Below the pieces are notes generated by a model, which did not search any database, was not told the origin of the DNA, and saw nothing but the letters and a program-made list of their open reading frames with translations. A stretch of DNA of 6,588 bases, taken from a virus. Below are positions 1 to 6,588 of the stretch, in pieces. Where the stretch lies: the IMG/VR virus record IMGVR_UViG_3300045988_079189, positions 1-6,588 of that record. One strand, given 5' to 3'. How positions within the stretch are numbered: the first letter of the stretch is position 1; each line of letters begins with the position of its first letter. Position numbers and translations under genes: made by a program.

Positions 1-55
1 CCAGCGCAATCTTTTAAGGAAAAGTTGAATGTCTTCATAACGCGGATAAGATAAA
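1..55. repeat. Terminal redundancy of the contig. Bases 1-55 are identical to 6534-6588, so the molecule is a 6533-nt circle opened inside the rep gene.
   Basis: Base-by-base comparison: ccagcgcaatcttttaaggaaaagttgaatgtcttcataacgcggataagataaa occurs at both window ends. The minus-strand rep frame runs through the junction without a stop. Confidence 0.95.
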
Positions 56-414
56 GCACCGAACAGATGAGCTTTCTCCAATGCCTGAGGTATCTCATCA
101 TGGTCGGACGTACAATAATTTTCTAATAATTCACCAGTATTGTAATCATATATTTCATAGAAGGAAAAGTTCCGTGTCTGTTTAGCAAGACGGAACACAG
201 CGCGCGGGATAAAAGAATTAGCAAATGTAAGGGTAACAAAATACACCTTAGCAGAAGTAAGACCCTCTAATGTACACTGCTCAGAATAACGGGAAGCCTT
301 AATAGTAGCACATGCAGAACAATGGCCACAAGGGACAACCAACGGCTCCTTAGTAAATGGATTTATTATCCGTTTAGGCCGAAGGCAATATACAAAGGGG
401 GTCTCCTTACTCAT
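1..414 (-). CDS. VP4: Replication initiation protein VP4 (HUH rolling-circle endonuclease), N-terminal 138 codons. It continues across the circular junction into 6533->5298.
   Basis: My translation from the ATG at 414-412 reads MSKETPFVYCLRPKRIINPFTKEPLVVPCGHCSACATIKASRYSEQCTLEGLTSAKVYFVTLTFANSF...YEDIQLFLKRLRW. It is open to base 1. Joined length is 414+1236 = 1650 nt, which is in frame with ORF 5298..6542 (track start MRWR is really ...KRLRWR...). It contains the Cys-rich CGHCxxC segment and the RCR motif-1-like FVTLTF typical of microvirus VP4/gpA. Confidence 0.85.
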   Translation of the reverse strand, partial: MSKETPFVYCLRPKRIINPFTKEPLVVPCGHCSACATIKASRYSEQCTLEGLTSAKVYFVTLTFANSFIPRAVFRLAKQTRNFSFYEIYDYNTGELLENYCTSDHDEIPQALEKAHLFGALSYPRYEDIQLFLKRLRW

Positions 415-581
415 TTTACCGGAGTTTGAATGGTAATAGATGCAGAATCAGCACTTGCAGAAGTAGGATTTTCTACTTTCTGCGTAGAATTCGTGTTATT
501 CTTTTGAACATACACAGCAAACGTACAACTTGCGGCAAGAAGCGCAAAAATGATAAGCGTAACATAATGTTTCTTTTTCAT
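411..581 (-). CDS. Small putative lipoprotein of 56 aa, below the ORF-track size cutoff.
   Basis: Hand translation from the ATG at 581-579 gives MKKKHYVTLIIFALLAASCTFAVYVQKNNTNSTQKVENPTSASADSASITIQTPVK, with TGA at 413-411. It has a basic n-region (MKKKH), a hydrophobic h-region (VTLIIFALLAA) and a lipobox-like AASC. The mature part is S/T/N/Q-rich. The stop overlaps the rep start as ATGA (414-411), suggesting translational coupling. Confidence 0.55.
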   Translation of the reverse strand: MKKKHYVTLIIFALLAASCTFAVYVQKNNTNSTQKVENPTSASADSASITIQTPVK

Positions 582-679
582 ATTAGTTTATTTTTAGACA
601 CACAAAGAAATAAATAAAAAAAATAAGATGCAAGAGGAAAGCAGGCTGTCATTTTCCGAAAGGAGAACAAGAAAGGAGG

Positions 680-706
680 GTGCAAGGGAAATCTGAAACC
701 TTGCAC
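680..706. repeat. Short inverted repeat/hairpin: 8-bp stem GTGCAAGG / CCTTGCAC with an 11-nt loop, upstream of the lipoprotein-rep operon.
   Basis: 680-687 is the exact reverse complement of 699-706. No flanking T-run. Function unknown; a possible operator or structural element. Confidence 0.3.
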
Positions 707-767
707 ACTTCGTGAAAATGACTAGGTTTCACTCCTAAAGTTAAAGTAAAGCTTTAAGTATATAAAG

Positions 768-789
768 AAAATAAGTTTTAACTTATTTT
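768..789 (-). terminator. AT-rich hairpin followed by T-rich sequence on the minus strand. Candidate terminator at the end of the long minus-strand gene string.
   Basis: aaaataagtt (768-777) and aacttatttt (780-789) are reverse complements. On the minus strand the stem is followed by cTTTaTaTacTTaaagcTTTacTTTaac. It sits immediately after the TAA (790-788) of ORF 788..1030. The stem is weak because it is all A/T apart from one G:C pair. Confidence 0.25.
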
Positions 790-1030
790 AACCGCAAAAG
801 CCTACAAAAGTGGTACACCCCTTTTGCCATAAAAGCACAAAATAAGAGAAGGCATAAGGAGGAGACGATAGCAAAATAAGCACAACTTTTGGCTCGGCCG
901 GATAATTTTTCAGGCGCAATCCACGGCCATGAGATTGAAACACTAGCGCACCAGTCGACATGCAAAGGTAGAAAATCAAGATACCTAAAAAGCCAAATAG
1001 TGTTAACGGTAAGCCGTCTAAAGACGACAA
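788..1030 (-). CDS. Hypothetical small membrane protein with two predicted hydrophobic helices; coding status uncertain.
   Basis: The 80-codon ORF starts at a TTG, and the first ATG is at 961-959. It has two hydrophobic stretches (LPLTLFGFLGILIFYLCMSTGALVF and VVLILLSSPPYAFSYFVLLW) separated by a basic loop (QSHGRGLRLKNYPAEPK). Its 5' end lies inside the 979-1064 hairpin, and a second frame (783..965) is also open here, so this may be chance. Confidence 0.25.
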   Translation of the reverse strand: MSSLDGLPLTLFGFLGILIFYLCMSTGALVFQSHGRGLRLKNYPAEPKVVLILLSSPPYAFSYFVLLWQKGCTTFVGFCG

Positions 1031-1064
1031 ACCGTTAACACTATTTACCTTTAGTTAGGTATCT
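979..1064. repeat. Long, nearly perfect inverted repeat able to fold into an ~86-nt stem-loop in ssDNA.
   Basis: The outer arms agatacctaa (979-988) and ttaggtatct (1055-1064) are exact reverse complements. aaag (989-992) pairs with cttt (1049-1052). The inner arms aaatagtgttaacgg (995-1009) and ccgttaacactattt (1032-1046) are exact 15-bp reverse complements. The apical region 1010-1031 holds a further cgtc-taaa-gacg mini-hairpin (1015-1026). Confidence 0.85.
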
Positions 1065-1140
1065 AACAATTTTCACCTATTTTGCATTGCCGACCGATAC
1101 GCCAGTGAATCAATCTCACTTATGGCCGAGGAATGCACCT

Positions 1141-1178
1141 GAAAAAGCCTAAGGTAGCCGCAAGCGGCTGTATTTTTC
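1141..1178. terminator. Intrinsic-terminator-like element: A-tract, GC-rich hairpin, T-tract. It looks bidirectional and the functional strand is unclear.
   Basis: The sequence reads gaaaaagcctaaggt-AGCCG-caag-CGGCT-gta-tttttc. The stem spans 1156-1160 / 1165-1169 and the T-run is 1173-1177 on the plus strand. On the minus strand the same stem is followed 9 nt later by cTTTTTc. It lies 55-75 nt downstream of the stop of ORF 1232..1429. Confidence 0.35.
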
Positions 1179-1231
1179 TATGTCTCCGACGGCTCCTACG
1201 CGGAGAGCGGCCTCACTCAATCCAGTAGAAT

Positions 1232-1429
1232 CTATTCAGAGCCTAAAAGAACGGGCCTCACGAGGTTCCAGCTTTGAAGAACTGAGAGCGGAACAACAGC
1301 GACCAACTTATCAGAACTCGTAGCCATGCGCGAAGCATAGCGAAACGCACCTGCAAAAACAGTAATGTTTGCAGGAATACGGCACCAAGAAAACTCGCCT
1401 GATGCCGTTTGATACACTGCATAATACAT
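1232..1429 (-). CDS. Hypothetical protein, 65 aa.
   Basis: The ATG at 1429-1427 lies 5 nt after the stop of the preceding ORF, on the same strand as all other genes. I recognise no motifs. It sits in a G+C-richer patch containing an internal 8-bp hairpin (1350-1357 / 1368-1375), so this could be structured non-coding DNA instead. Confidence 0.35.
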   Translation of the reverse strand: MYYAVYQTASGEFSWCRIPANITVFAGAFRYASRMATSSDKLVAVVPLSVLQSWNLVRPVLLGSE

Positions 1430-1434
1430 AATAA

Positions 1435-1641
1435 TTAATTAGTTTTAGAATAAATAGTTTCATAAGAACGACCTACCTTAGCCTGAACAATGCCAGCAAG
1501 GAAGTCCAAGTCAATTTCAGAATACTTGTCAAGAAAATCTATAGCATTACTCCTAGTACACCAATAAGTAGTAGTAGAACCTTCACACTTAGACAATACA
1601 ACAACACGAAATTTTTTCTTCAAAGTAATAACTGGTTTCAT
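1435..1641 (-). CDS. Hypothetical protein, 68 aa.
   Basis: ATG start preceded on the minus strand by aaaaaaggaaagatatt, the only clear purine-rich SD-like element in the genome. Same strand as the structural genes. No recognisable motifs. Confidence 0.5.
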   Translation of the reverse strand: MKPVITLKKKFRVVVLSKCEGSTTTYWCTRSNAIDFLDKYSEIDLDFLAGIVQAKVGRSYETIYSKTN

Positions 1642-1708
1642 AATATCTTTCCTTTTTTGTTATACACAAAGATAACAAGAAAAAGCCAAACTTAACGTTA
1701 ACAGAGCG

Positions 1709-1945
1709 TTAAAAATTAGTTAAGAATTGTATTTCTATTTTCTGAACATCTCGATAAGCAATCCCAGGGATATAATCAGTATCATGACTATACACTAAGT
1801 AATGAACTTTCAAGACAGGTCCAAGAGGACCATAAACATAGCAATCCTGAAACAAAAGCAATTGCCTTAAAGGCAAGGAGCACAAAAAGCGCTCGATGTC
1901 TTCAAGGCAATAAAATAGAACTGGGAAATAACCTAACTGCATCAT
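1709..1945 (-). CDS. Hypothetical protein, 78 aa, translationally coupled to VP2.
   Basis: The start ATG (1945-1943) overlaps the VP2 stop TGA (1944-1942) as ATGA. The protein is Cys/aromatic-rich and I recognise no family. Confidence 0.55.
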   Translation of the reverse strand: MMQLGYFPVLFYCLEDIERFLCSLPLRQLLLFQDCYVYGPLGPVLKVHYLVYSHDTDYIPGIAYRDVQKIEIQFLTNF

Positions 1946-2991
1946 CTTACAGTACGAGGAATAGCCTGAGAATTCTCAGAAGAATTTTGAAAATTCTTAA
2001 AAAAATCACCGACACCTTGGAATCCGTTCTTATTATATGCATCAACAAGCTTTGAAAACAAATCAAAAGCAAGTTTCAACTCATTATCCGGGCCAGTATT
2101 ATTCTCTGCATGAGTAGCTTCAGCAGATTTAATACGCAGCTCATCATTATAAGTATCTTTTTGAAAGTTATAATTCAACAATTCTCTCTTAGCCTGATAA
2201 TAAGAAATTTCTCCCTGGTTATATCGGTCAAAAACCTCAGCGACCTTGGACGCAATAGACAATTGATAATTCATATCATAATTCTGGAATTCCTTCATAG
2301 TAAGAGCAGCTGAATAGGCGTTGGCAATACTGGCAATACCTTTTAAGTTATTATCCATAGCTACACCTAACATTTTAAGGCCTTCACTCTGTTGAGCGAA
2401 GTAACCTTGAGCAGATGCTACCTGAGCATTTCCACGGATAGTTGCAAGATAATACGGCATTGCCGCACGGGTCTGATAATTTTCAAGACCTTGACCAACA
2501 TAACTTTGATAATCATTAGCAAAACCCATAGCGGAGGATGCAACACCTTTTATTGCATCAATTACCTGAACCATCTTCTGAAGTCTGTCCATTGCGAAAA
2601 CCGGCTCAACATGACCGGGAACCATAGGCGCACCAGTCTGCTGAGTTCCGGAAGTATCGGCAGGAGCAGCAGAAGGAGCAGTCATCGAAGAAGCAGTACC
2701 AGCAGAACCACCGGACATCATCATATAAGGATTAAGACCAGCTTCCTCAAGCCTAGCACGCTGGGCAGATGCGGAGTTATATTCATTCTCAGCATTCCAC
2801 ATTTTCCACTGCTCATCAATCTGACGCTCTAGATTCTCTCTATTATACTGATTATTCATCTGGGCAATATCACGATTTGCCTGATTCGTCTCCTTAGCAA
2901 TATCGCGATTTGCCTGATTGGTAGAATCAGTCATCTGAACATTGGCATCATTAGCCAATTTCTGAGCCTTTTCCTGTGCAGAAGCACCCAT
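1942..2991 (-). CDS. VP2: Minor capsid / DNA pilot protein VP2.
   Basis: The 349-aa ORF follows the capsid and scaffold-like genes. It has an N-terminal Q/N/A/E-rich helical region and the motif ARLEEAGLNPYMMM, which I recognise from microvirus VP2 proteins. That is followed by a Gly/Ser/Ala/Thr/Pro linker (SGGSAGTASSMTAPSAAPADTSGTQQTGAP). The ATG overlaps the upstream stop as TAATG (2993-2989). Confidence 0.8.
   Translation of the reverse strand: MGASAQEKAQKLANDANVQMTDSTNQANRDIAKETNQANRDIAQMNNQYNRENLERQIDEQWKMWNAENEYNSASAQRARLEEAGLNPYMMMSGGSAGTASSMTAPSAAPADTSGTQQTGAPMVPGHVEPVFAMDRLQKMVQVIDAIKGVASSAMGFANDYQSYVGQGLENYQTRAAMPYYLATIRGNAQVASAQGYFAQQSEGLKMLGVAMDNNLKGIASIANAYSAALTMKEFQNYDMNYQLSIASKVAEVFDRYNQGEISYYQAKRELLNYNFQKDTYNDELRIKSAEATHAENNTGPDNELKLAFDLFSKLVDAYNKNGFQGVGDFFKNFQNSSENSQAIPRTVR
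2864..2929. repeat. In-frame tandem duplication (2 x 33 nt) within the VP2 N-terminus.
   Basis: gcaatatcacgatttgcctgattcgt (2864-2889) and gcaatatcgcgatttgcctgattggt (2897-2922) match at 24 of 26 positions with a 33-nt period. The protein reads TNQANRDIAKE-TNQANRDIAQM. Confidence 0.85.
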
Positions 2992-3491
2992 TATTCAGAA
3001 GGAGAAGGAGAAGAAGCCGGAGACGGAGCAGGGTCAGGATTATTTGATTTTTCTTTCTCAGCCAATTCCTTATTAATACGCTCAACTTCCATCTTATAAT
3101 TGTCATCCAACCATGCAGACCAGCGCAATAACTCGGAAGGAGACTGAATATAACGAGACTTAATAAACTGGCGTAGCTGAACATCCGACATTTTCTCGCG
3201 AACAGAACGCAAGGAAGAAGCAGACTTTCCGGCATTTTCCAAGAACTGAGAAAGCCGAGAAAGCTCCATACGGGTCAAGTCCTGCATATGAAAAAGAGCA
3301 TATACATCATTACGATAATGAACAGCCGGACACGTAGAATGAACACAAGGAAGCTCAACATAATTCATGTCCTCAATAGGAGAAGGCTGCCTAAATTCAG
3401 TCAAGCCATTAAAAAGAGTTGAAGTAATAGGAGGAGTATAAGACGTAACACGCTCCTCAACTTTGCGGAAAAAACGAAATGTCTTAGTCAT
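2991..3491 (-). CDS. Putative internal scaffolding protein (VP3-like), 166 aa from the ATG at 3491.
   Basis: The track ORF 2991..3560 overlaps the VP1 3' end. The ATG at 3491-3489 (MTKTFRFFRK...) lies 11 nt after the VP1 stop and is the more likely start. The segment DVQLRQFIKSRYIQSPSELLRWSAWLDDNYK resembles the conserved C-terminal pattern of gokushovirus VP3 scaffolds (LPxxIRxRFxNDPxxLLxFLxDxxN). The acidic/Pro/Ser tail and the position between VP1 and VP2 fit this call. Confidence 0.55.
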   Translation of the reverse strand: MTKTFRFFRKVEERVTSYTPPITSTLFNGLTEFRQPSPIEDMNYVELPCVHSTCPAVHYRNDVYALFHMQDLTRMELSRLSQFLENAGKSASSLRSVREKMSDVQLRQFIKSRYIQSPSELLRWSAWLDDNYKMEVERINKELAEKEKSNNPDPAPSPASSPSPSE

Positions 3492-3502
3492 AACATAATA
3501 TT

Positions 3503-5305
3503 TTAATAAGGTAATCCATTCAAGTCCAGAGGACGAACCGCGCGACAAGTAATCATACAAGAGCCTAACAACGGGTCAGTATCCGGAGTATCATCAGCCT
3601 TAACGGCAAACAATGTATCAACACAATGAGGGTCAACCTTGAAAAATCCTGCCTTAATAGAATTGGATTCCACATTAGGATTGTCAGGAAAATCAACAGA
3701 GTTGGCAGCTAACGCAGCCTTGTCGTCGAAAGGGAGACACCAGTACTGAAGAGAGCGAGAAAAAGCACCGACAGAGCGGTCATAATCAGTTTTGAACGGG
3801 AAATACCTAGGAGCATAACCTAGATAAGTATCACCCTTCAAGTTTGAGAATGATGACTTCAAAGGATTCATAAGATAGCCTAAAGGAACCTGCTCCATAC
3901 CAACTTGGTCAAATTCAGGAATAGGATAAGACGTAGCATCAGTCAACAAACACTCAGGATTAACACCAGAAGTAATGTAATCAAGCATAGGCAAGGCATG
4001 GAACACACACATAACAATACCGTATTCACCATTAGCATCTACTCTAATAGTACCACGGGCAGACATAGAACCTTTACCTCCAAGAGTAGCAGCATTATCA
4101 TCGATTAGATTCGTATTGGTAACCTCATTAATATCCAACGAAGTATCAATACCGCCAAGATAACGTACCATACCGGAAAGTTCTTTTGGAACGCGAGTGC
4201 CAAAGTGCGCTTGAATCTGAGAGGGGTAATCTTCCTCAGTGCACAGTGAGATTTCTTTCCATTTTTGAGAAGCTTCCGCACGACGAAGAGACAAGATATC
4301 AAGGGTAAATGAATCTATACCTGAAACAGCCAATCCAGTTTTATACAATGCAAAATTATCAGAAGCATCAGCCAATATTCCCTGTTTTGAAGATTCGTTA
4401 AAAAACTTAGCAGCACCATCAAGACTGAACTGAGGATTAGTCTCATTCTTAAATGACATAGGTTTACCATCCGATACAATAGAAGGAGAACCACTAATAG
4501 AAACAAGAGACGCTTCTCCATACTGAGCCTGCGGAATAACACCATGAAACATATCCTTTTGATAATTGGCATACCGCATGTCAAGGAAGTTAAAAGAGTC
4601 AGTAAATCCAGGCCAAGTCAAGTCGAGTTGTAAATCATTATTACCCATAATGTAATCCAGATTAAATGTAGAAGGATTAACACGTTCCCATTGGGTGAAT
4701 CGGCCAGAATCAGCATAGATCTTCTGATAACAGAGAAGGGGAGAAACATCAAATGCAAAGTTAATCAACAATGGGGCAGACCTCCAGGTCTTACCGGGAC
4801 CTCCGGCAGCAGCTGAGATATAATTGTAAAACGCATTACCATATCCGAGATACTCCAATAAGATACAAGTATTCCACGCACGAGAACGGCCAAATGTATC
4901 CACGGAATCACCTAATTCTTCAATATAAATTGCCAACTGCTCAGCAGTAACATAAGGAAGTTCACCAGTAAGAATAACATTTTCCTGCAATGTAGGGCCT
5001 GAAGCATGCTGAACATTGGAATTCATCTGCGTCAATGCGGTATAATATTTATTCCAAAGTACACGCAAAGGAACGAAGTAAAAATCATAGTAACCTTTCA
5101 TACGCGCAAACGCAGAAGTGTTAAGAGGTTGGGTACGGATAAATTGAGCCAAATCAATTTCAAATGAATCCGAAGGAATCATACGACGATGCCAGATAGG
5201 ATAATACATACCTACCTTGGCAGAAAAGTTAAATTTACGCGACAAGTCAAAACCGGAACGAGACGGGTTATTCTTAACCGTCGCCAAAGACATAATATTA
5301 GCCAT
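3503..5305 (-). CDS. VP1: Major capsid protein VP1 (phage F-protein family).
   Basis: The 600-aa ORF starts with MANIMSLATVKNNPSRSGFDLSRKFNFSAKVGMYYPIWHRRMIPSDSFEIDL, followed by RTQPLNTSAFARMKGYYDFYFVPLRVLWN. These are hallmark blocks of Microviridae major capsid proteins. The ATG (5305-5303) overlaps the rep 3' end by 8 nt. Confidence 0.93.
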   Translation of the reverse strand: MANIMSLATVKNNPSRSGFDLSRKFNFSAKVGMYYPIWHRRMIPSDSFEIDLAQFIRTQPLNTSAFARMKGYYDFYFVPLRVLWNKYYTALTQMNSNVQHASGPTLQENVILTGELPYVTAEQLAIYIEELGDSVDTFGRSRAWNTCILLEYLGYGNAFYNYISAAAGGPGKTWRSAPLLINFAFDVSPLLCYQKIYADSGRFTQWERVNPSTFNLDYIMGNNDLQLDLTWPGFTDSFNFLDMRYANYQKDMFHGVIPQAQYGEASLVSISGSPSIVSDGKPMSFKNETNPQFSLDGAAKFFNESSKQGILADASDNFALYKTGLAVSGIDSFTLDILSLRRAEASQKWKEISLCTEEDYPSQIQAHFGTRVPKELSGMVRYLGGIDTSLDINEVTNTNLIDDNAATLGGKGSMSARGTIRVDANGEYGIVMCVFHALPMLDYITSGVNPECLLTDATSYPIPEFDQVGMEQVPLGYLMNPLKSSFSNLKGDTYLGYAPRYFPFKTDYDRSVGAFSRSLQYWCLPFDDKAALAANSVDFPDNPNVESNSIKAGFFKVDPHCVDTLFAVKADDTPDTDPLLGSCMITCRAVRPLDLNGLPY

Positions 5306-6588
5306 CTTCAGAAAATATTAGTTTATCATTAATACGTTTATTTTTTGAACGAACAAGAGAAACACGAGTGATGTGACGATAAAATCGCCTATAATACTCA
5401 GTTTTTAAAAAATCATTTTCAAAATCAGCATCAGTATTGTTATAAAAAAAGTCCAAATCTTCAGGAGCTGAAAAGTCACTTTCAAAATAAAGCTGCTGAG
5501 ACTCAATCCAATCACGAAGGTGAACATAATCAACCCAGGACCAAAACTGGACAACTCTGTTATAAAAAGTAGACAAGTTAACGCCAAGAATACGAGCATT
5601 AGAGCAAAACCTTTTCGAAATAGACAACATACGATAAAGCCTAAGAACATAGCGATAATACATCTCATCGTTGGAAAAATCAAATGATTTAGGAAAATCC
5701 TTAGCATTAACAGCATAAGTAGACAAGAAAGATAGATAGTTTCTCTGAAATGGAGAATATCCAGTCTTTCCAAGGTACACACAATCAATAACATCCTCAA
5801 CAACAGATTTAGATAAATCCATCATATTAAGGTCGTTACCATACATAGAATCAGACGTTAACACGTCATAGAGTCTCGGGACTTGAGGGAAAAAGTAGAT
5901 AACTGGTATACAGAGGGAAAAATCCCTTTTGTTAGAGACAGGGTTAAACCCAAGACATTTTGGGTATAAGTAATTGACAATTGAAAAGGGTGTAGGTCTT
6001 TCTCGAGATTTAGTATCACCGATTCTGACATAACTAACAAGTTCTCTAGGGTCTCGTAACAAAGCTTGTTTAAGGTCGGGGATAAAATATCGGCGGCCGA
6101 GGAATCGGCTGTGTCGGGACTTGAGGGAAAAAGTAGATAACTGGTATACAGAGGGAAGAGACATAGGGCTAGTAATGTATCCCGCAACATACTGAGAGCA
6201 GTCACTGGCTCCGACTGATTCACAATCGACACGACCGAATTTCCAAGCTTCACGGACAGCGAATTCGAAATATGAAAGCCGATGACCGGATGTGACTGGA
6301 GGGTCTTTTCTAAGTGGCCAAGTCCACTGAGGGTAATCTCCAAGGGTATGTCCGGAGTATGGCTCAAATTCTTCACTATCGACGAAAAATAAGAAATGGT
6401 AATGAATTCTGTAGGTTTCGGGTCCGTATTCAGGAGCACAGAAAAATCTAAGCTTCGAGGCTGAAATACAATCTGACGCTTTGATTTCTTCTTCCTTTTC
6501 AGGAATTTTCCCAGCTTTGAGATTTGACAAGCGCCAGCGCAATCTTTTAAGGAAAAGTTGAATGTCTTCATAACGCGGATAAGATAAA
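5298..6588 (-). CDS. VP4: Replication initiation protein VP4, residues ~121-549 as seen in this window. The true N-terminus is at 414->1 across the circular junction.
   Basis: It contains the HUH motif RIHYHFLFF (codons at 6384-6404) and the catalytic-tyrosine motif SQYVAGYI (6174-6191), followed by FSLKSRHSRFLGRRYF. This matches the microvirus VP4/phiX174 gpA-type RCR initiator. The track start at 6542 is an internal TTG (Leu). The frame stays open to 6588 and continues into 1-414. No Walker-type NTPase motif is visible. Confidence 0.9.
   Translation of the reverse strand, partial: LSYPRYEDIQLFLKRLRWRLSNLKAGKIPEKEEEIKASDCISASKLRFFCAPEYGPETYRIHYHFLFFVDSEEFEPYSGHTLGDYPQWTWPLRKDPPVTSGHRLSYFEFAVREAWKFGRVDCESVGASDCSQYVAGYITSPMSLPSVYQLSTFSLKSRHSRFLGRRYFIPDLKQALLRDPRELVSYVRIGDTKSRERPTPFSIVNYLYPKCLGFNPVSNKRDFSLCIPVIYFFPQVPRLYDVLTSDSMYGNDLNMMDLSKSVVEDVIDCVYLGKTGYSPFQRNYLSFLSTYAVNAKDFPKSFDFSNDEMYYRYVLRLYRMLSISKRFCSNARILGVNLSTFYNRVVQFWSWVDYVHLRDWIESQQLYFESDFSAPEDLDFFYNNTDADFENDFLKTEYYRRFYRHITRVSLVRSKNKRINDKLIFSEDG
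5876..5919. repeat. Copy 1 of an exact 44-nt direct repeat inside rep.
   Basis: tcgggacttgagggaaaaagtagataactggtatacagagggaa is identical to 6114-6157, and the flanks are unrelated. Rep reads it here as SLCIPVIYFFPQVPR. It contains two gagggaa sub-repeats (5885-5891, 5913-5919) flanking a GTATAC palindrome. Confidence 0.95.
6114..6157. repeat. Copy 2 of the exact 44-nt direct repeat inside rep.
   Basis: Identical to 5876-5919 with a 238-nt offset, which is not a multiple of 3. Rep reads it here as PSVYQLSTFSLKSR, about 17 nt downstream of the catalytic Tyr motif codons. Confidence 0.95.
6534..6588. repeat. Second copy of the 55-nt terminal redundancy (identical to 1-55).
   Basis: Exact identity to 1-55. 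A 55-nt overlap is what a de Bruijn assembler with k=55 would leave on a circular contig (inference). Confidence 0.95.

Follow-up and report, generated by a model that had tools for sequence, protein, structure and literature searches.

Which gene lets the small phages of the gut out of their hosts? Microviruses rank among the most abundant human gut phages, and their exit route is explained only for phiX174, by its E protein (PMC3394797; PMC9239249). We approach this question through a 6,588-nt stretch of viral DNA, positions 1 to 6,588 of the IMG/VR record IMGVR_UViG_3300045988_079189 (termed the window), which represents an Alpavirinae-type microvirus of Bacteroidales. On its minus strand, at 411-581, a 56-aa open reading frame (ORF) with the translation MKKKHYVTLIIFALLAASCTFAVYVQKNNTNSTQKVENPTSASADSASITIQTPVK runs into the start of the rep gene. 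A sequence-only reading of the window had proposed that this ORF is an unannotated lipoprotein gene, coupled to rep, with a role in lysis or superinfection exclusion. Here, we show that the ORF is a real gene selected at the protein level and that its mature peptide surpasses every other protein segment of the genome in conservation. The distribution of its homologs among related phages, complementary to that of an M15 peptidase, suggests lysis as the candidate function.

A short gene selected for its protein product

The reverse complement of the ORF reads ATG AAA AAG ... GTA AAA TGA, and both its sequence and the overlap of its TGA with the ATG of rep (ATGA at 414-411) were confirmed. Its N-terminus conforms to the sequence rule for bacterial lipoproteins (PROSITE PS00013/PS51257), which in our own implementation of PS00013 demands K/R within residues 1-7, an uncharged h-region, a small residue at position -1, and a Cys at positions 15-35. 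No other ORF passes this rule among the window's 103 ATG-started ORF variants of at least 30 aa. Since at least one passing ORF is also present in 18% of dinucleotide-shuffled windows, the lipobox pattern is not significant by itself; it is conservation that raises this ORF above chance.

A search of 5.8 billion proteins returned 55 homologs of 53-80 aa with 57-96% identity, located mostly on contigs of ca. 6 kb and in some cases on contigs of 47-287 kb. An outlier at 57-60% identity (P0055) proved to be artefactual, owing to a frameshift in a nanopore assembly (L005), and was excluded. The nominal 90% cluster representative of the window protein, an unrelated Bordetella carboxylase, is a clustering artefact. 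The lipoprotein frame is uninterrupted in 17 of 17 distinct relatives and is the sole frame that is open throughout all of them. Across 16-17 distinct DNA sequences, the mature part evolves at a ratio of nonsynonymous to synonymous changes (dN/dS) of 0.15-0.17 at a synonymous divergence (pS) of 0.46, i.e., under purifying selection. The last 12 codons of the leader show a dN/dS of 0.90, and the leader varies in sequence but stays hydrophobic. The five other frames are closed by stop codons in all or some sequences or have dN/dS values of 0.36-3.2. At the codon level, relatives use AGY as well as TCN for Ser43 and Ser46, and Cys19 is unchanged in the alignments of close homologs with both TGT and TGC in use. 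The segment CTFAVYVQKNNTDSTQKVENPTSASADSASITIQSP is nearly fixed in the homolog alignment, whereas the hydrophobic leader changes freely. Because the other frames are closed or less constrained and Ser43 and Ser46 draw on both codon families, selection acts on the protein; an overlapping gene or DNA element as the cause of conservation was rejected. The ORF is a genuine, previously unannotated gene, as had been proposed, and chance is excluded.

The extent of this constraint becomes apparent when the proteins of four relatives are compared with those of the window. The mature lipoprotein is 92% identical in L003, 79% in L014, 84% in L016, and 82% in L013. The corresponding values are 34, 32, 34, and 29% for Rep, 54, 55, 54, and 43% for VP1, and 28, 28, 25, and 24% for VP2, with 33% for the VP3-like protein of L003. 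Recent transfer is unlikely as a source of the mature-peptide identity given the pS of 0.46. Constraint above that of all other phage proteins fits a conserved host component as target, comparable to the “protein antibiotic” lysis proteins. An AlphaFold2 model built from a 33-sequence alignment shows the leader as a helix and assigns no fold to the mature part (predicted local distance difference test, pLDDT, ca. 50). The mature peptide is thus probably unstructured until it meets a partner, yet it is certainly constrained: the disordered polar tail of the sequence-only reading needs correction, as the tail is not loosely constrained. Annotation pipelines that drop ORFs below 60 aa miss what is apparently the most constrained gene of these genomes.

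A family of predicted periplasm-facing lipoproteins

To place the gene among related phages, we assembled 105 sources consisting of the window and related loci, including 80 VP1 relatives (35-89% identity; 78 of them new) retrieved from IMG/VR via VP1 alignment. A hidden Markov model of the family matches 75 of the 105 sources, on the coding strand every time, and the gene is consequently a feature of most relatives rather than a peculiarity of one genome. With one distant member as query, tblastn detected the family in 77 microvirus records of GenBank that come from the guts of mammals (lemur, rodent, pig, dog, and human), birds (chicken), and tortoise. The gene is labeled “hypothetical protein” or uncalled in the source records. 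The searchable literature, which does not extend to subscription-only reviews, reports no lipoprotein for microviruses or Alpavirinae, in line with the novelty suggested earlier.

A profile search of 1.84 billion representatives yielded 29 clusters at E<1e-3, nearly all of 46-110 aa and with a common layout: the leader and its lipobox Cys are followed by a segment of alternating hydrophobic and polar residues that ends in (Q/S)K, a stretch rich in N/S/T/Q, E(N/Q), and S-[AV]-D-S-[AT]-x-[IV]-x-[ILV]. Three long matches (P0057, P0069, and P0076), each with 5-10 short matching stretches, were set aside as non-members; P0076, the only one of them that was read, is a tandem-repeat protein. In 169 distinct members with a median mature length of 38 aa, the lipobox Cys is present without exception (169/169), and the residue at -1 is S in 149, A in 15, and G in 2 (166/169 S/A/G). 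These data corroborate the signal-peptidase-II type leader. None of the 169 carries D or E at positions +2 to +6 after the Cys, where the window protein has T-F-A-V-Y. In Bacteroidetes, the signal for surface export lies just behind the Cys (C-X-K-(D/E)2-X; SDDDD in B. fragilis) (PMC5080379). The family thus lacks the acidic signal of the surface-exposed lipoproteins of Bacteroidota that depend on a lipoprotein export signal (LES) and, by this rule, is expected to stay periplasm-facing, as the sequence-only reading had suspected.

The only invariant residues in the alignment of the wider family are D45 and S46. Among 140 members, the residue that follows is A in 74, T in 57, S in 6, V in 2, and I in 1, so that D-S-[A/T/V/I] occurs in 134 of 140. 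The window's D45-S46-A47 matches the general O-glycosylation sequon of Bacteroidota, D-(S/T)-(A/I/L/V/M/T), which acts on exported proteins only (PMC8550257), and Ser46 is probably O-glycosylated, as judged from this motif. Sequence searches against Pfam, PHROGs, NCBIfam, PADLOC, and PDB identified no significant family, and their matches reflect similarity of the leader alone to unrelated lipoproteins; a Spo7 Pfam match to the window protein was spurious. By sequence, the family matches nothing known and falls outside the colicin-release, Llp/Cor, Rz1, and phiX174 E classes. In distant subfamilies (L021, L023-L025, L074, and L078-L088), strong conservation extends to the N-terminal membrane segment (QWIEIVKLISTF.IG.IT.L.VQSC), which weakly resembles the NCBIfam model NF033879 “smalltalk protein” (15-19 bits, cutoff 24.7). 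Owing to this conservation, the leader may have a function of its own in these subfamilies.

The position of the gene varies between lineages. In the window clade and many others it overlaps the rep start, and in close relatives (L003, L014, L016, L019, and others) the overlap always amounts to 4 nt or 1 nt. In other lineages, it precedes rep by 120-200 nt, with another small ORF in the interval, or lies 4 nt upstream of VP1. The coupling to rep noted in the window therefore holds for its close relatives, but does not define the family. In temperate lineages, the lipoprotein gene is the first gene inside the left attachment site (attL), ca. 280-375 nt from a dif-like site and reading inward. 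With the pattern used, no dif-like site was recognizable in the window, nor in about half of the carriers. Other short ORFs in front of rep occur as well. At L107 651-830, in a different microvirus genome on that contig, an unrelated small lipoprotein (MKKFILLCLVGIGCGLLSVSC-GSSWDF...ILPDSVK) with a D-S-V sequon at its end precedes rep by a 6-nt gap. In L062, a complete relative with neither the family nor an M15 peptidase, a 31-aa hydrophobic ORF (MKPVWKIVFYVAEALLSAIKAVFGGKDKESK) at 384-476 lies directly upstream of rep and may represent a third solution for this slot.

Exchange with an M15 peptidase and the candidate role in lysis

The 30 sources without the family comprise 17 with an M15 peptidase, 12 contigs shorter than 5.8 kb, and the one complete genome L062. 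Conversely, an M15 peptidase occurs in 0 of the 75 lipoprotein-carrying sources, and the 17 M15 genomes contain neither a family member nor any credible lipobox ORF. In 16 of these 17, the M15 gene is located immediately upstream of rep with the frames meeting or overlapping (in L075, for example, M15 spans 516-824 and rep begins at 821); in phiHBP1, it lies ca. 150 nt downstream of rep. A neighbor-joining tree of VP1 places the lipoprotein state as ancestral with at least two independent M15 replacements, one in a clade nested among lipoprotein carriers and the other in phiHBP1, the sole cultured Bacteroides microvirus. M15 peptidases of microviruses are held to be probable lysis genes, while lysis outside phiX174 is unexplained (PMC3394797, PMC9239249). 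The window encodes neither an E-like gene nor a peptidase, as had been observed: jackhmmer over all window ORFs found no M15 peptidase, Pfam added none, and neither a holin nor an endolysin was detected. As a near-universal gene vanishes when a wall-degrading enzyme arrives, the simplest reading is that both do the same job. With two events, the pattern is suggestive of a shared task, short of proof.

Of the two roles contemplated by the sequence-only reading, this mutual exclusion makes the evidence lean toward lysis. The small periplasm-facing lipoprotein is accordingly our leading candidate for the lineage's single-gene lysis, or release, effector, a role to which we assign somewhat less than an even chance. 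A more far-reaching proposal is correspondingly more tentative: the family may found a lipoprotein class among the single-gene lysis proteins and be the long-missing lysis gene of Bacteroidota-infecting gut microviruses. Its product would be an exported, lipid-anchored, and probably O-glycosylated peptide of 37 residues that binds a conserved envelope target and thereby kills the cell from the periplasmic side. As the first cistron of a lipoprotein-rep unit, the lipoprotein would be made whenever Rep is made. The precursor would be exported by the Sec pathway, lipidated at Cys19, and cleaved by signal peptidase II, leaving a 37-residue tail, probably O-glycosylated at Ser46, anchored on the periplasmic face of a membrane. 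There, the strand-like TFAVYVQK and SITIQ segments and the D-S motif might bind a highly conserved envelope component. Accumulating in step with Rep, the peptide would block a periplasmic step of peptidoglycan synthesis or unleash a host hydrolase; candidate targets are a regulator of host hydrolases or, on the synthetic side, penicillin-binding proteins, the flippase, or lipid II. The wall would then fail and the 25-30 nm virions escape, a task that would equal that of phiX174 E by another route as well as the presumed task of the M15 peptidase in sister lineages. phiX174 E is constitutively co-expressed with replication genes, and the lack of a late switch is thus no obstacle to lysis.

In form, the family appears closest to the colicin-release proteins, entericidin, and Llp/Cor, and in its proposed role closest to phiX174 E and the single-gene lysis proteins (Sgl) of ssRNA phages. 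The colicin and bacteriocin release lipoproteins (Lysis_col; ColE1 Kil, cloacin DF13 BRP) and entericidin B share a precursor of 45-56 aa, a signal-peptidase-II leader, and ca. 30-40 mature residues; the release proteins are likewise co-expressed with the main gene of their element and, if the lipoprotein is lytic, would resemble it in damaging the envelope to free a macromolecular cargo. They differ in the absence of sequence similarity, in host phylum, and in residing on colicin plasmids rather than an ssDNA phage, while the mature peptide of the window family is longer, extremely conserved, and equipped with an invariant D-S motif. Neither Pfam (E<=0.1 for the window protein, E<=0.5 for P0073 and P0079) nor NCBIfam assigned the family to Lysis_col or entericidin. 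With phiX174 E and the ssRNA-phage proteins A2, LysM, and SglPP7, the window gene would have in common a single short lysis gene in a phage without room for a holin-endolysin cassette, no dedicated late switch, and a high conservation that suggests a specific, conserved host target. Those proteins are, however, cytoplasmic or integral to the membrane and often overprinted, and the window gene has no sequence relation to them. An E-type gene is overprinted and encodes an N-terminal transmembrane helix and a cytoplasmic C-terminus that targets MraY; the window gene is free-standing with its other frames closed, and its product is predicted to have a cleavable leader and a tail exported to the periplasmic side. 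Rz1-type o-spanins offer a further parallel as short lysis-associated phage proteins with an outer-membrane-type lipoprotein signal, but the 6.5-kb genome has no i-spanin, endolysin, or holin, the mature part contains only 2 Pro in 37 residues, and PHROG spanin models match the leader only (E 0.07-0.37). The M15 (M15_3/M15A) peptidases of Alpavirinae and phiHBP1, finally, are cytoplasmic-looking metallopeptidases of ca. 100-135 aa, in contrast to an exported 37-aa lipopeptide without a catalytic motif; it is the same slot in 16 of 17 genomes and the complementary phyletic distribution that suggest the same life-cycle task.

Several considerations weigh against a lytic lipoprotein. To our knowledge, none of the known single-gene lysis proteins is a lipoprotein, and the colicin release proteins, the known lytic lipoproteins, cause quasi-lysis through phospholipase A that possibly does not free virions. 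T5 Llp is likewise a small periplasm-facing phage lipoprotein. A lethal product would need tight repression in lysogens, because the gene is the first by attL and is co-transcribed with rep. AlphaFold yields no structure for the mature part, and no target emerged. The microvirus M15 peptidase carries no signal peptide, its own lysis role is putative, and with only two inferred replacement events the exclusion pattern could be coincidence or lineage history.

The same features admit other functions. The lipoprotein might serve superinfection exclusion or receptor masking: anchored in the inner leaflet of the outer membrane, it would bind the periplasmic face of the receptor, e.g., a TonB-dependent transporter, blocking adsorption or DNA entry and shielding progeny from inactivation on debris and vesicles, as T5 Llp does on FhuA. 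Size and layout match those of Llp- and Cor-type lipoproteins (Cor of phi80, N15, and HK022), which are also periplasm-facing and made early. The first position inside attL is typical of a lysogen-expressed gene, and many carrier lineages are temperate. Exclusion genes are, however, usually patchy, dispensable, receptor-specific accessories that track their receptor, whereas this lipoprotein is near-universal in its clade and conserved above the capsid (92% vs 54%), and exclusion offers no rationale for a replacement by a peptidoglycan peptidase. The roughly half of carriers, the window among them, in which our pattern detects no dif-like site fit poorly as well. Pfam, PHROGs, and PADLOC gave no sequence match to exclusion families; the best hit, to phrog_4980 “superinfection exclusion”, came from one distant member at E 0.052. 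Taken together, we consider exclusion the main rival to lysis, plausible but unlikely. We found no degraded prophage that would have allowed us to score whether the gene is kept or lost. The L107 contig resembles two different microvirus genomes in tandem, which may be a double prophage or an assembly chimera; it is a potential point against exclusion that we left unused because of the latter possibility.

We regard as improbable another envelope or lifestyle role, such as a membrane helper for replication, assembly, or DNA entry, a lysogenic-conversion factor of benefit to the host, or a setting of Rep levels through coupling. The tight coupling to rep in the window clade is compatible with such a role, as is the observation that the slot before rep is always filled by a short ORF, be it the family, the unrelated L107 lipoprotein, M15, or the L062 peptide. 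A purely regulatory leader ORF, on the other hand, would maintain neither its amino-acid sequence at a dN/dS of 0.17 nor its lipobox through 169 variants; in other lineages, the gene adjoins VP1 without coupling to rep; and no metabolic or adhesin-like feature is present. Least credible, in our view, is that lipoprotein processing does not take place and that the N-terminal segment is kept as an anchor or cut by signal peptidase I, yielding a small inner-membrane toxin or holin-like peptide. This would be in keeping with the A-x-S before the Cys, which also suits a signal-peptidase-I site, with the conserved N-terminal segment of the distant subfamilies, unusual for a disposable signal peptide, and with one subclade that has a Cys at -3 and fails PS00013. 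Against it stand the invariant Cys, the one residue that only lipidation requires, preceded in nearly all members by S, A, or G, and, in the window clade, the strongest constraint on the exported tail instead of the membrane segment.

The family provides a short, easily synthesized lysis candidate that is present in most Bacteroidota-associated microviruses as their most conserved protein and is annotated nowhere. Should the lytic role hold true, its target would be a conserved point at which the envelope of Bacteroidota is vulnerable. Bacteroides, Phocaeicola, and Prevotella would then have a new weak spot of the “protein antibiotic” kind, and the gene would encode the first single-gene lysis protein of the lipoprotein type. 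Should the protein act in exclusion instead, it would account for the immunity seen among prophages that are very common in the gut.

Gene map and neighboring elements

Bases 1-55 of the window are identical to 6534-6588, and this 55-nt terminal repeat indicates a circular genome of 6,533 nt. Every credible gene lies on the minus strand (Table 1), and a few further small ORFs are present. In a Pfam scan of five window ORFs above 100 aa, two of which are the halves of Rep, and two small ORFs, the only credible matches were Phage_F and the Rep domain REP_ORF2-G2P. The closest deposited Rep is 31% identical to that of the window, and megablast of the whole window against GenBank phages gave no match. 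Alpavirinae-type microviruses of Bacteroidales have been described (PMC3091885, PMC9239249), and we place the window in this Microviridae group (“Alpavirinae”, Family 5), which is characterized by a Phage_F VP1 of ca. 600 aa, a long Rep, the order rep-VP1-VP3-VP2, Bacteroidales hosts, and dif-like att sites in temperate members. We base this assignment on the two Pfam domains and on metagenomic relatives, several of which are prophages integrated between dif-like repeats, one of them in a Phocaeicola metagenome-assembled genome.

Table 1. Coordinates of the lipoprotein gene, its parts, and other features of the window.
Feature	Position	Strand	Remarks
Lipoprotein gene	411..581	-	56 codons + TGA; 55 close homologs
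ATGA, rep start overlapping lipoprotein stop	411..414	-	translational coupling
Signal peptide M1-S18 (predicted)	528..581	-	n-region MKKKH, h-region YVTLIIFALL, lipobox A-A-S
Cys19 codon TGT	525..527	-	predicted lipid-attachment site, mature residue 1
Mature peptide C19-K56	414..527	-	amphipathic strand-like TFAVYVQK, polar N/S/T/Q-rich linker, VENPTSAS, then ADSASITIQ
D45-S46-A47	441..449	-	O-glycosylation sequon match; D45 and S46 invariant family-wide
rep (VP4) 5' part, residues 1-138	1..414	-	REP_ORF2-G2P Pfam domain in relatives
rep remainder across circle junction	5298..6533	-	whole Rep 549 aa, begins MSKETPF
VP1	5305..3503	-	Phage_F
VP3-like ORF		-	189 aa
VP2-like ORF		-	349 aa
ORF-free stretch upstream of lipoprotein gene	582..1231	-	650 nt

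The ORF-free stretch in front of the lipoprotein gene is nearly invariant in five relatives of the close subclade whose coding regions differ at synonymous sites, and the promoter of the lipoprotein-rep unit probably lies within it. A near-perfect hairpin of ca. 245 nt (ca. 900-1146) in this stretch has an ssDNA folding energy of -99 kcal/mol, compared with -40 +/- 4 for shuffled sequences (z = -14.7), and shows compensatory changes at five pairs. This hairpin, for which Rfam has no match, could act as an origin for the complementary strand, as an attachment site in folded form, or as a structured leader. In the window as a whole, Rfam gave nothing above threshold; an M-box match on the non-coding strand was rejected at 29.6 bits against a gathering score of 44. 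A smaller hairpin at ca. 672-700 on the minus strand (GTGCAAGG-N11-CCTTGCAC), ca. 95 nt upstream of the lipoprotein start, shows an A-T to G-C compensatory change in three of six relatives (alignment columns 539/555) and could serve as a terminator, an operator, or a site at which Rep nicks.

In the temperate subclade, the corresponding upstream region holds a dif-like site and an ORF of 67-80 aa instead. Dif-like sites (ATTAAACATAATACGGATTATGTGCAC) flank the integrated relatives L003 (9626-9652 and 16060-16086) and L016 (8675 and 15160) and also occur in the free form L014, at 11 and 6487. The chromosomal site is identical in several independent metagenome contigs, with a patatin gene on one side and a Usp gene on the other. 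The 67-80 aa ORF (..ELLDW...ICSLK.FIKKH), conserved in this prophage-forming subclade between the dif-like site and the lipoprotein gene (L003 9756-9998, L016 8801-9004, L014 125-343), matches no Pfam family and does not occur in the window.

Within rep, a 47-nt direct repeat with one mismatch (5873-5919 and 6111-6157, 238 nt apart) is translated in two different frames, as SVYQLSTFSLKSR and CIPVIYFFPQVPR; it may reflect a true duplication or have arisen during assembly. At 1232-1429 on the minus strand, a 65-aa ORF (MYYAVYQTASGEFSWCRIPANITVFAG...) without a Pfam match is kept in close relatives, with changes mostly at third positions.

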